DNA of 64,000 bases from Candidatus Thorarchaeota archaeon (GCA_048882325.1 JBHLRS010000009.1:40901-104900); one strand, 5' to 3'. Positions 12,773 through 60,609 are shown, numbered from the stretch's first letter. Numbers and translations are program-made. Notes: generated by a model not told the origin, from the sequence alone.

Positions 12773-12881
12773 TGGTGCTCCGGCCGGGATTCGAACCCGG
12801 GTCGGGGGATCGAGAGTCCCCCATGCTGGGCCGGACTACAGTCGGTATCATTGTAAGGAATATACAATGCTCTACCGGAGC
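12773..12881 (-). tRNA. tRNA-Glu(CTC) with a 31-nt intron at position 10/11 (12841-12871)
   Basis: GCTCCGG acceptor stem, GGGGA-CT-CTC-GA-TCCCC anticodon arm, CCA; the insert interrupts the D stem. Confidence 0.88.
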
Positions 12882-19599: not shown

Positions 19600-19676
19600 G
19601 CGACCGTGGTCTAGCCTGGTTAGGACGGAAGCCTCCCAAGCTTCCAAGCCGGGTTCAAATCCCGGCGGTCGCACCA
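19600..19676 (+). tRNA. tRNA-Gly(CCC), no intron, CCA encoded
   Basis: Canonical cloverleaf; GAAGC-CT-CCC-AA-GCTTC anticodon arm. Confidence 0.95.
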
Positions 19677-19719
19677 CTGATTTTCGTCAGATTTAAGGGA
19701 GGATAATTAATTATATTCT

Positions 19720-19794
19720 TGGCGAGCGATGATTGCGATGACCCCTATGAGTCAGAATTGACGATGATATGGATCTTGAGTTAGGAGCTCGCCA
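19720..19794 (+). ncRNA. Box C/D-like guide sRNA predicted to target tRNA wobble position 34
   Basis: Terminal stem TGGCGAGC/GCTCGCCA; C ATGATTG, D' ATGA, hairpin GTCA-GAAT-TGAC, C' ATGATAT, D AGGA; 11- and 12-nt guides; TTTAAG about 25 nt upstream. Confidence 0.7.
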
Positions 19795-19887
19795 TTACTT
19801 TCGGTAACCTCCCCTTTTATCATACATTTAATCGTACGCTCCGCAAATGCTTTTAAGGTGCCTCAGCGAAATTGCATTTGGACTGTC

Positions 19888-21099
19888 ATGCCGCACGACT
19901 ATGTTGAAGATGAACTCAGTAGGCGTAGTGTCTTCAAATCTGAACAATTCCTATCGATAGACTATGTGCCAGAGAGTCTTCCCCATCGACAGTCCGAGAT
20001 TAGAACACTTGTTCAAAGTTTCAAGACTTTGATCAGTTCACCGGGGCGCACTAGTCACAAGTTCATCATTGAAGGTCCTGTGGGAACAGGGAAGACAGCG
20101 GTGGCTAAGCGGTTTTCTGAACAGATGATTCAAGCTGCAAAGCGGAGAAATATCAGACTCCACAGTATCCATATTAACTGCCGTGTTAACAAGACCGCAT
20201 ATCTCGTTTTTCTTAGAGCTCTAAGGGAGTTCAAACCGAAATTTCCTAGACGTGGTCATTCTCCTGACGAGTTACTACAGATGCTAGTTGAAGTCCTTGA
20301 TGAGGAGGATCGCTATCTCCTTCTGATTCTTGACGAACTTGATTACTTCATTAGGCAAAGGGGATCAGACATTCTCTATGACCTCACAAGACTAATGGAT
20401 GACCGACTAAATGCCACACAGCGCCTCTCAATAATAGGAATTGGTCGTAAGATTCCTCTTGATGATGAAATTCTGGATTCTAGTACACGTAGTACGCTCC
20501 AGCGTAATGTCCTCCGTTTCTCGAGGTATAATCGCGATGCGCTTTCTGACATCCTCACCGACCGTGTAGATATGGCATTTGAGAGTAAGGCAGTCATGGA
20601 TGAAACGATTCAAGTAATCTGTGATATTGCAGCTGAACATGGTGATGCACGATATGCAATTGAACTCCTCTGGCGTGCAGGAAAACGTGCAGATCGTGAC
20701 CGAGTAGATGTTGTAATTCCTGACTATGCCCGTCGTGCAAAAGCTGACACACATCCAGAACTCAGAAAAGAGATTTTTGCTGCATTGCCAACACAACACA
20801 AACTTCTGCTCCTAGCTGCAGCAAGACAGCTTAGGGAAATTCGTAGTGCCTATGTCACCATAGGCGAAGTCGAAGAGATGTATCGTACAATTTGTGAAGA
20901 GTATTATGAAGAACCTAGAGCTCATACTCAGATTTGGGAATGGGTACAAGATCTTCACTCTCATGGTATAATTGATACGAAAAAATCAGGGACAGGACAA
21001 AGAGGACAGACAACTCTCATAGGCTTTTCAGACGTTCCAGCTGAGATGTTGGAGCAATTTCTCTCAGGATTACTTGATACATCTAAGGAGGCTGTGTGA
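19888..21099 (+). CDS. cdc6: Orc1/Cdc6 replication initiator
   Basis: YVPESLPHR, GPVGTGKT, LILDELD, HGDARYAI, C-terminal winged helix. Confidence 0.95.
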   Translation: MPHDYVEDELSRRSVFKSEQFLSIDYVPESLPHRQSEIRTLVQSFKTLISSPGRTSHKFIIEGPVGTGKTAVAKRFSEQMIQAAKRRNIRLHSIHINCRVNKTAYLVFLRALREFKPKFPRRGHSPDELLQMLVEVLDEEDRYLLLILDELDYFIRQRGSDILYDLTRLMDDRLNATQRLSIIGIGRKIPLDDEILDSSTRSTLQRNVLRFSRYNRDALSDILTDRVDMAFESKAVMDETIQVICDIAAEHGDARYAIELLWRAGKRADRDRVDVVIPDYARRAKADTHPELRKEIFAALPTQHKLLLLAAARQLREIRSAYVTIGEVEEMYRTICEEYYEEPRAHTQIWEWVQDLHSHGIIDTKKSGTGQRGQTTLIGFSDVPAEMLEQFLSGLLDTSKEAV

Positions 21100-56285: not shown

Positions 56286-56404
56286 GCGGGAGTAGCCAAG
56301 CCCGGTCAAAGGCGGCGGACTTAAGATCGTAACAAAAGATGGGGTCACGATAAGATATCCGCTCTCGTAGGAGTTCGTGGGTTCGAACCCCACCTCCCGC
56401 ACCA
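56286..56404 (+). tRNA. tRNA-Leu(TAA) with a canonical 31-nt intron (56326-56356)
   Basis: Perfect BHB (CTTA/TAAG helix); long variable arm; CCA encoded. Confidence 0.93.
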
Positions 56405-60439: not shown

Positions 60440-60609
60440 GCCGCAGTGGCCTAGCCTGGTTAGGGCGCGAGACTCATAATCTGACTGGAATTCCCAGTCT
60501 AAATTACGGGGTCAGTTCTCGGCCCGACCTCAGATGAGGCATCTCGAAGTCGTGGGCTCGAAGCTATGCCACATTGCGTGGTATAGACAGTTTCCCACCT
60601 GCGGCACCA
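60440..60609 (+). tRNA. Elongator tRNA-Met(CAT) with two introns (37/38: 60479-60540; T-loop about 59/60: 60563-60592)
   Basis: GCCGCAG/CTGCGGC acceptor stem, CGAGA-CT-CAT arm, BHB CTCA/TGAG; second hairpin insert in the T loop; CCA encoded. Confidence 0.85.

Follow-up and report, generated by a model that had tools for sequence, protein, structure and literature searches.

A stretch of 64,000 nucleotides (nt) of Candidatus Thorarchaeota DNA (GCA_048882325.1, JBHLRS010000009.1:40901-104900), referred to below as the window, contains on its plus strand a box C/D small RNA (sRNA) of 75 nt, at positions 19720-19794, whose two guides appear to recognise the same unspliced tRNA precursors at two different places. 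The guide upstream of box D (the D guide) faces the anticodon arm of tRNA-Leu(CAA), Leu(UAA), elongator tRNA-Met and tRNA-Trp, and the guide upstream of box D' (the D' guide) is complementary to a motif, GGGGUCA, that the Leu(UAA), Met and Trp genes carry in their introns. Compensatory changes in guide and motif across the phylum show, at the level of sequence comparison, that the D' guide and the intron motif form a selected RNA-RNA pairing. We consider it probable that one small ribonucleoprotein (sRNP) would capture the unspliced Leu(UAA), Met and Trp precursors through two duplexes and methylate their wobble nucleotide, nt 34. Docking of the second guide on an intron tag that several tRNAs have in common would be a new mode of substrate recognition within the box C/D sRNAs.

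The D' guide is an 11-nt spacer (19736-19746) whose core, UGACCCC (19739-19745), occupies positions N+2 to N+8. The first-pass annotation of the window had noticed that this core is complementary, in the correct antiparallel order, to GGGGUCA in the Leu(UAA) and Met introns, and we recovered the motif on the plus strand at 56341-56347 and 60508-60514, respectively. The same annotation had found the motif absent from the other introns that it considered. This holds for the genome, since GGGGUCA occurs in only three of the 32 listed tRNA genes (19 of them intron-bearing), namely in the introns of Leu(UAA), Met and Trp, which are all D-guide targets. The pre-tRNA-Trp (G000:C30:955-1092, minus strand) is a third motif-bearing target, located outside the window and beyond the view of the first-pass annotation. 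GGGGUCA is also the only intron 7-mer common to at least three of the 19 intron-bearing tRNA genes. The 273 genomic GGGGTCA sites in 7.2 Mb of both strands lead to an expectation of ~0.03 sites in the ~730 nt of tRNA intron, and three introns carry one; in the whole window there are eight sites when 4.6 are expected, which is not an enrichment.

The duplex energies of the D' guide with its intron motifs range from -14.2 to -15.8 kcal/mol and are as large as those of the D duplexes, while the Leu(CAA) intron offers the D' guide only -6.3 kcal/mol. The substrate exits the D duplex beside box C' and enters the D' duplex beside box D', and owing to this antiparallel order the linker need cross only the internal kink-turn. 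In Met, the two target sites are separated by a hairpin (GACUGG-AAUU-CCAGUC, 60483-60498, plus strand) that covariation keeps in 30 homologous introns, and the Trp intron is made of a hairpin, a linker and GGGGUCA, with no C box and no C/D boxes of its own. A D' target was also sought in rRNA, and neither GGGGUCA nor an 8-bp match was found in the 16S and 23S rRNAs of two family members (G035 and G070), this metagenome-assembled genome having no rRNA. In G070 the small-subunit (SSU) and large-subunit (LSU) rRNA genes are ~59 kb apart (L172/L171, G070:C2), and in G035 the SSU match spans 2411 nt (L173, G035:C2), which suggests a large insertion or an intron.

We then compared guides and introns across the phylum, using the sRNAs of 20 genomes of other families and the pre-tRNAs found there by pattern scans. 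The sRNAs of these families keep the D guide, and their D' guides mostly read UCUGACCC(C/U/A), with variants. The D' guide of G042, GUCUGACCCC, goes with the Met motif GGGGUCAGAC and that of G122, AUCUGACCCC, with the Met motif GGGGUCAGAU, the Leu(UAA) motif being GGGGUCAGA, in a D-loop intron, in both genomes; the D' duplexes of G042 and G122 are 10 bp long and differ compensatorily at position 10. The guide of G041, UCUGACCCU, goes with AGGGUCGGA in Met and AGGGUCAGA in Leu(UAA), so that the motif reads AGGGUC(A/G)GA. The guides UCUAGCCCU of G040 and UCUAACCCU of G203 are each matched by one motif present in both Met and Leu(UAA), AGGGCUAGA and AGGGUUAGA, respectively. In G060 the guide UCCAGCCCU is accompanied by the Met motif AGGGCUGGA, a Leu(UAA) motif not having been found in that genome, and G134 and G198, with guide UCUGACCC, carry the Met motif GGGUCAGA in an upstream intron.

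Thirteen genomes supplied 21 guide-target pairs, among which four helix positions switched between two Watson-Crick pair types, with counts of 12/6 for G-C/A-U, 17/4 for A-U/G-C, 12/7 for C-G/U-A and 15/2 for U-A/C-G. The duplexes formed by each guide with its own introns had a mean energy of -17.3 kcal/mol, compared with -14.1 +/- 0.7 kcal/mol for permuted pairings, and 0 of 20000 permutations reached the observed value. Divergent D' guides ranked first on their own introns. A partial exception to the covariation is G039, whose guide variant fits its own Met intron and mismatches its own Leu introns. These samples are not independent, because the genomes are related; even so, it is difficult to see how, without base pairing, a compensatory switch could recur in two different pre-tRNAs of a single genome.

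The guide and its motif are also retained together at closer range. In our sample of the family (40 genomes, 16 genera) the D' guide AUGACCCC is invariant. All of the Met genes (30/30) show the same layout of AAUC, a co-varying hairpin, an A-rich linker of 6-9 nt and GGGGUCA, with the motif 21-27 nt after AAUC, and all of the Leu(UAA) genes with an intron at position 37/38 (27/27) carry GGGGUCA 10-13 nt after GAUC. The positions flanking the motif in these Met and Leu(UAA) introns show only 50-54% identity. GGGGUCA was found in ~17 of 24 Trp introns, the remainder being one base off, and in none of the 28 Leu(CAA) introns of the family, yet all of these Leu(CAA) genes have a perfect D target. 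The first-pass annotation had suggested a search of tRNA introns for the motif and for covariation with the guide, and this search revealed co-conservation across the class and compensatory changes across the phylum in two pre-tRNAs per genome.

In the sister family G037 (33% G+C), where Met and Trp genes were sought by an Rfam tRNA scan and a pattern scan, the D' guide reads AAGACCCC, the U beside GACCCC is lost and the motif of the Met intron is GGGGUCG. The Leu(UAA) and Leu(CAA) genes of G037 have no intron at 37/38; their GGGGUCA and GGGGUCG, respectively, lie in an intron situated upstream of the anticodon arm. Position 7 of the motif is thus relaxed to A/G/G where the U of the guide was lost, and the tag stays with the D-guide targets even as the position of the intron changes. 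The upstream position gives a mirror topology, in which the linker crosses the terminal kink-turn. Several other families, like G037, have Leu genes whose tag-bearing intron is inserted between the D-loop and the 3' strand of the D-stem (L383, L386, L387, L382, L267 and L272), and the tag is therefore found at two intron positions.

The D guide, GGAUCUUGAGUU, is 12 nt long (19771-19782), and its sequence GAUCUUGAGU is invariant in all of the 50+ homologs read across the phylum. In the anticodon arm its partners are nt 30-41, and nt 34 falls at N+5, the fifth base upstream of box D, where G19778 lies opposite C34 in Leu(CAA), Met and Trp and opposite U34 in Leu(UAA). The first-pass annotation had predicted a tRNA-Leu(CAA), outside the window, that would form a G-C pair at C34. 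We found this gene at G000:C40:13627-13744, with the target GACUCAAGAUC and a Watson-Crick pair of C34 at N+5. It pairs with the D guide over 11 bp as a precursor and over 12 bp when mature (11 Watson-Crick pairs and a terminal G.U), or 13 with U19770, the last base of the C' box, and the energies of the precursor and mature duplexes are -16.2 and -19.6 kcal/mol, respectively. The pairings that had been proposed for the two targets within the window were recovered at the same coordinates. The tRNA-Leu(UAA) gene (56286-56404, plus strand, with a 31-nt intron at 56326-56356) contains the target GACUUAAGAUC at 56318-56328, with U34 at 56322, and forms 11 bp as a precursor and 13 bp when mature (-14.2 and -17.4 kcal/mol), the G19778-U34 pair at N+5 being a G.U. 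The elongator tRNA-Met(CAU) gene (60440-60609, plus strand) contains the target GACUCAUAAUCU at 60471-60482, with C34 (60475) at N+5, and forms 10 of 12 pairs (-10.5 kcal/mol), with mismatches at nt 36 and 37 (N+7 and N+8). This Met gene has a long insert of ~62 nt at 37/38 and another intron of ~30 nt in the T-loop, and both ARAGORN and the Rfam tRNA model miss it. The pre-tRNA-Trp pairs with the D guide with one mismatch, at nt 35, and requires the first bases of its intron, AUCU, for an energy of -13.5 kcal/mol, compared with -7.9 kcal/mol for the mature tRNA.

A duplex of at least 9 bp with a Watson-Crick pair at N+5 is thus formed by Leu(CAA), and is approached in part by Leu(UAA) (G.U), Met (two mismatches) and Trp (one mismatch). 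When the genome was scanned under box constraints for further guides to nt 34 of Met, Trp or Leu(UAA), only one unconvincing site, on contig C2, came up besides this sRNA. At that site (G000:C2, minus-strand coordinate 27359), a C/D-like string ATGATTG is followed by GCATCTTGAGCC and then by AGGA, and the guide resembles the D guide; the string has no convincing terminal stem and may be coding sequence.

The sRNA itself had been described in the first-pass annotation as two kink-turn-like C/D pairs with degenerate boxes inside an 8-bp terminal stem, and both the sequence of the window and the compensatory changes in homologs bear this description out. All of its elements are on the plus strand. 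The 5' strand of the terminal stem, UGGCGAGC (19720-19727), forms 8 bp with the 3' strand, GCUCGCCA (19787-19794), with G-C to A-U compensatory changes in homologs. The C box AUGAUUG (19729-19735) provides a 3-nt bulge, GAU (19728-19730), a sheared GA (19731-19732) and then UUG, and it faces the D box AGGA (19783-19786), whose GA is invariant and whose first two positions co-vary with the C box, position 6 of which changes in step with the first of them (U-A, G-C, A-U) and position 5 with the second. The terminal kink-turn combines degenerate boxes (AUGAUUG and AGGA) with an invariant GA/GA and a stem that is maintained by compensatory changes. The internal C'/D' motif (AUGA ... GAU-GA-UAU) is also present and is closed by a co-varying hairpin of 3-5 bp. 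Its D' box is AUGA (19747-19750), with an invariant GA and with CUGA in some genera, where a compensating change is found in the C' box; the hairpin GUCA-GAAU-UGAC (19751-19762) that closes the internal kink-turn has three stem pairs with compensatory changes (100% of cells paired); and the C' box AUGAUAU (19764-19770) provides the bulge GAU (19763-19765), then GA and UAU. In one genus both the D and the D' box are a fully canonical CUGA, and C and C' carry the G that matches them. The spacers of 11 nt (D') and 12 nt (D) fit the norm of ~12 nt for archaeal box C/D sRNAs. The adjacent stem, together with the covariation between D-box position 1 and C-box position 6, fixes the register of the C box in the kink-turn. 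A C-box register GYGAUGA at 19726-19732, which looks canonical in relatives (GUGAUGA), is three bases out of this register; it was rejected on the grounds that the stem and the sheared GA would then adjoin with no bulge in between and that the covariation fits the AUGAUUG register.

The folding energy of the sRNA strand is -27.6 kcal/mol (z = -3.6 relative to dinucleotide shuffles). Covariation was counted on the proposed structure in sets of 19 and 28 diverse homologs, and six to seven pairs showed compensatory changes, compared with 1.5-3.4 in column shuffles and 0-4 in slid controls. BLAST showed the sRNA to be present in 27 of 27 sampled genomes of the genus and in nine further genera. In an alignment of 37 copies, the GA dinucleotides of the boxes, both guide cores and the stems were conserved, while the loops and the 5' part of the D' spacer were variable. 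A covariance model built from the alignment matched 80 of 87 genomes of the class, with one copy each, and 100 of 151 genomes sampled from the phylum. No Rfam 15 family matched at its gathering score, the best C/D models giving 12-14 bits for cut-offs of 44-55. On contig C46 of this genome, the gene for fibrillarin (290 bits) is next to that for Nop5 (226 bits). Two metatranscriptome contigs from ~90% identical relatives, with a depth of 2-3, overlap the sRNA and cannot prove its transcription; on the DNA side, matches to the sRNA came from sediment and mangrove metagenomes. On the combined evidence of fold, homologs and covariance model, we regard the assignment of 19720-19794 to the box C/D sRNA class as confirmed, and its expression and its binding by L7Ae are predicted. 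In one genome of the genus, G010, three slightly different copies of the sRNA (L006, L036 and L037) are found on three contigs, likely as a result of a strain mixture in the bin (contamination of 7%).

In the mechanism that we propose, L7Ae would bind the two kink-turns and Nop5-fibrillarin would assemble on them. The D guide would pair with the anticodon arm and set wobble nt 34 at the N+5 methylation position, and the D' core would simultaneously pair with GGGGUCA in the introns of exactly those D targets that are imperfect, adding about -14 to -16 kcal/mol. Unspliced precursors would be held by two duplexes bridging the internal kink-turn, and the intron motif would act as an address tag with which one degenerate guide could serve several tRNAs. 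Since the D target overlaps the central helix of the bulge-helix-bulge (BHB) structure (CUCA/UGAG and CUUA/UAAG), binding of the guide and splicing would exclude each other; methylation would thus come first and splicing, which would discard the tag, second. The finding that Leu(CAA), the only perfect D target, has no motif in the family fits such a compensating address tag. We infer the expression of the sRNA, the assembly of the RNP, the formation of 2'-O-methylated nt 34 (Nm34) and the need for docking. As to the introns themselves, we lean slightly towards the view that some archaeal tRNA introns persist as address tags that recruit a shared guide for the wobble methylation of poorly matching pre-tRNAs before splicing.

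Several observations weigh against docking for methylation. The N+5 pair of Leu(UAA) is a G.U, when a Watson-Crick pair at this position has been reported to be essential (PMC6009581), and the D duplex of Met has two internal mismatches. The D' duplex is only 7 bp long in the class, and 6 bp in G037, below the usual criterion of 9 bp, and the pairing could serve a purpose other than docking because the D' site obeys the N+5 rule on a G of the intron. In six genomes of the family, Leu(UAA) lacks both the 37/38 intron and the motif, so that docking is dispensable there. Some tRNAs match the D guide without an intron motif. tRNA-Leu(UAG) (G000:C9:22704-22817, minus strand) pairs 12/12, with three G.U, and tRNA-Leu(CAG) (G000:C13:89252-89367, minus strand) pairs 11/12, both with nt 34 at N+5; ARAGORN mistyped these as Thr and Glu, respectively, because of their introns. 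tRNA-Glu(CUC) (12777-12847, minus strand) reaches 10/12 like Met, which means that Met is not distinguished by its complementarity to the D guide alone. Dedicated guides could also have been missed, because the assembly is 93% complete.

The overlap of the D target with the central BHB helix would also suit an sRNP that plays mainly a structural part on the Leu(UAA), Met and Trp precursors, gripping anticodon loop and intron in its two duplexes so as to block BHB formation or to aid correct folding later, and in this way ordering or licensing splicing, with catalytic formation of Nm34 on Leu(CAA) only. The G.U at N+5 and the two mismatches make poor methylation substrates by published rules (PMC6009581), and dual guides on one RNA are thought to be chaperones on rRNA (PMC7994747). 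We nevertheless find such a chaperone or timer unlikely, given that nt 34 lies always exactly at N+5 in all four tRNAs, that the same four tRNAs receive guide-directed Nm34 in Pyrococcus and that Leu(CAA), which also has a 37/38 intron, needs no tag. It is somewhat less likely again that the D' guide is a genuine guide for 2'-O-methylation of the fourth G of the motif (N+5), acting independently of the D guide and, for example, modulating endonuclease cleavage or the fate of the excised intron. The pairing of the D' guide with the introns is under strong selection according to the permutation test, and the D' duplexes of other families, with 9-10 bp and a Watson-Crick G-C at N+5, fully satisfy the canonical target rules. 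However, the tag is found only on tRNAs that are also targeted by the D guide and at a constrained spacing from the anticodon, it occurs in introns at two different positions with mirror topology, and its duplex has shrunk to 6-7 bp in the class and is yet perfectly conserved; a methyl group on a discarded intron would also be without obvious benefit.

The shortness of the duplex in the class could instead be a sign of decay, with Leu(CAA), and perhaps other Leu isoacceptors, as the only real substrates in this lineage and the 7-bp match as a remnant of an ancestral interaction of 9-10 bp. The guide indeed reads AUGACCCC and not UCUGACCCC, its own Met intron pairs better with the ancestral form (-19.5 kcal/mol, compared with -15.5 kcal/mol), and the Leu(UAA) genes of six relatives are intron-less. 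The persistence of GGGGUCA in every 37/38 intron of Met and Leu(UAA) that we read across the 16 genera, next to neighbouring bases of ~50% identity and facing an invariant guide, argues for purifying selection and makes decay the least probable of these three explanations. A motif unrelated to the sRNA, shared by coincidence or through the common ancestry of transposed introns, would be conceivable in that tRNA introns can spread between genes and that the short Trp and Leu(UAA) introns are alike in some genera. It is excluded by the compensatory changes of guide and motif at four or more positions in two tRNAs per genome, by the outcome of the permutations and by the retention of the motif in introns at different positions.

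Comparison with known systems showed that the set of targets is familiar and that the way in which they would be reached is different. In Pyrococcus, nt 34 is targeted by a separate sRNA in each of the four tRNAs Leu(CAA), Leu(UAA), Met and Trp (Clouet-d'Orval 2001, summarised in PMC7994747). The four target tRNAs, the N+5 logic and the chemistry, a 2'-O-methylation that is here predicted, are the same, whereas Pyrococcus has one guide per tRNA, one of them inside the Trp intron, and the present sRNA faces all four with a single invariant D guide and pairs with an intron tag through its second guide; this comparison was made at the level of the targets. In Haloferax volcanii, C34 of elongator tRNA-Met is methylated by sR-tMet, a C/D sRNA that works in trans and on the precursor that still has its intron (Joardar 2011, as cited in PMC4033218 and PMC6601510). 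Our sRNA is likewise trans-acting and aimed at C34 of an intron-containing pre-tRNA-Met. However, sR-tMet is said to form a single continuous duplex with its target, and the Met duplex described here is broken by two mismatches and complemented by a second duplex with an intron motif 21-27 nt downstream.

In euryarchaea, the intron of pre-tRNA-Trp embeds a C/D guide for Cm34 and Um39 (the 2'-O-methylated forms of these nucleotides), and modification takes place before splicing (PMC11408192, PMC4090602). A tRNA intron would take part in the guiding of nt 34 in both systems, with modification before splicing, but the parts are exchanged: the euryarchaeal intron itself does the guiding, and here the intron would be the target tag, the Trp intron having no C/D boxes. 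Guide-directed wobble Cm34 of tRNA-Met is also known in humans (SNORD97/SCARNA97; PMC6601510). In Pyrobaculum, ~80% of the tRNA-targeting sRNAs have an orphan second guide, only mature tRNAs having been scanned (Lui 2018, PMC6009581), the nt-34 guides have one target each and dual guides on a tRNA are rare (PMC6009581). Dual guides on rRNA, and tRNA-sRNA neighbourhoods, were already known (Breuer 2021, PMC7994747). As in the dual-guide rRNA sRNAs, the two guides of the present sRNA contact nearby sites of one substrate, and unlike the orphan second guides its D' guide has a target, which is located in an intron. Van Nues and colleagues reportedly described in 2011 an extra base-pairing of yeast box C/D snoRNAs with pre-rRNA, in which an accessory pairing boosts a weak guide. 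Unlike that pairing, the accessory pairing described here uses a second canonical guide position and a removable intron, and it co-evolves across a phylum. In the literature that was searched, with Clouet-d'Orval 2001 and Joardar 2011 represented by later papers that cite them, we found no account of a second guide docking on an intron tag common to several tRNAs, and a search there for Asgard or intron-docking C/D sRNAs returned nothing relevant.

The sRNA lies in a spacer of 180 nt between tRNA-Gly(CCC) (19600-19676, plus strand), directly upstream, and orc1/cdc6 (19858-21099), the next gene beyond it. The synteny with tRNA-Gly(CCC) is conserved, and this neighbour is retained even in the sister family G037. 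A TATA-like box, ATTTAAGG (19691-19698, plus strand), with a putative promoter function, is located ~22-29 nt upstream of the 5' end of the sRNA, and nearly all of the copies, including those of G037, have a TTTAAG/TTTATC element 22-31 nt upstream of their 5' end. Judging from these upstream elements, the sRNA probably has a TATA-like promoter of its own, just downstream of tRNA-Gly(CCC), from which it is transcribed. Directly 3' of the sRNA, a motif ACUUUCGG-N-AACCUCC (19797-19815) is conserved in nearly all members of the family and is flanked by the sRNA on one side and by the TATA-like box of orc1/cdc6 on the other; it may serve as a terminator, extend the sRNA at its 3' end, or be an element with a regulatory or origin function.

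Why introns have been kept in archaeal and eukaryotic tRNA genes is a question that has long been open, to which the only archaeal answer known to us is the Trp intron that is itself a guide. The co-evolving pairing links a trans-acting guide RNA with a tag in the introns of two to three tRNAs and gives these introns a plausible job, and the link of the tag to its tRNAs survives even at the other intron position in the gene. Such a role of introns as recruitment tags for modification is directly testable with simple mutants. Second guides are labelled orphan because guides are normally scanned against mature tRNAs only (PMC6009581), and our results expose intron targets of second guides as a blind spot of target prediction. 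If the proposed mechanism is true, many orphan guides of tRNA-targeting sRNAs would have intron targets, and one degenerate guide could do the work of the four nt-34 guides that Pyrococcus dedicates to these tRNAs. A single box C/D sRNP, conserved throughout an archaeal phylum, would then read an intron tag with its second guide, and it would represent an RNA-based counterpart, and possibly a forerunner, of the intron-dependent tRNA modification of eukaryotes.

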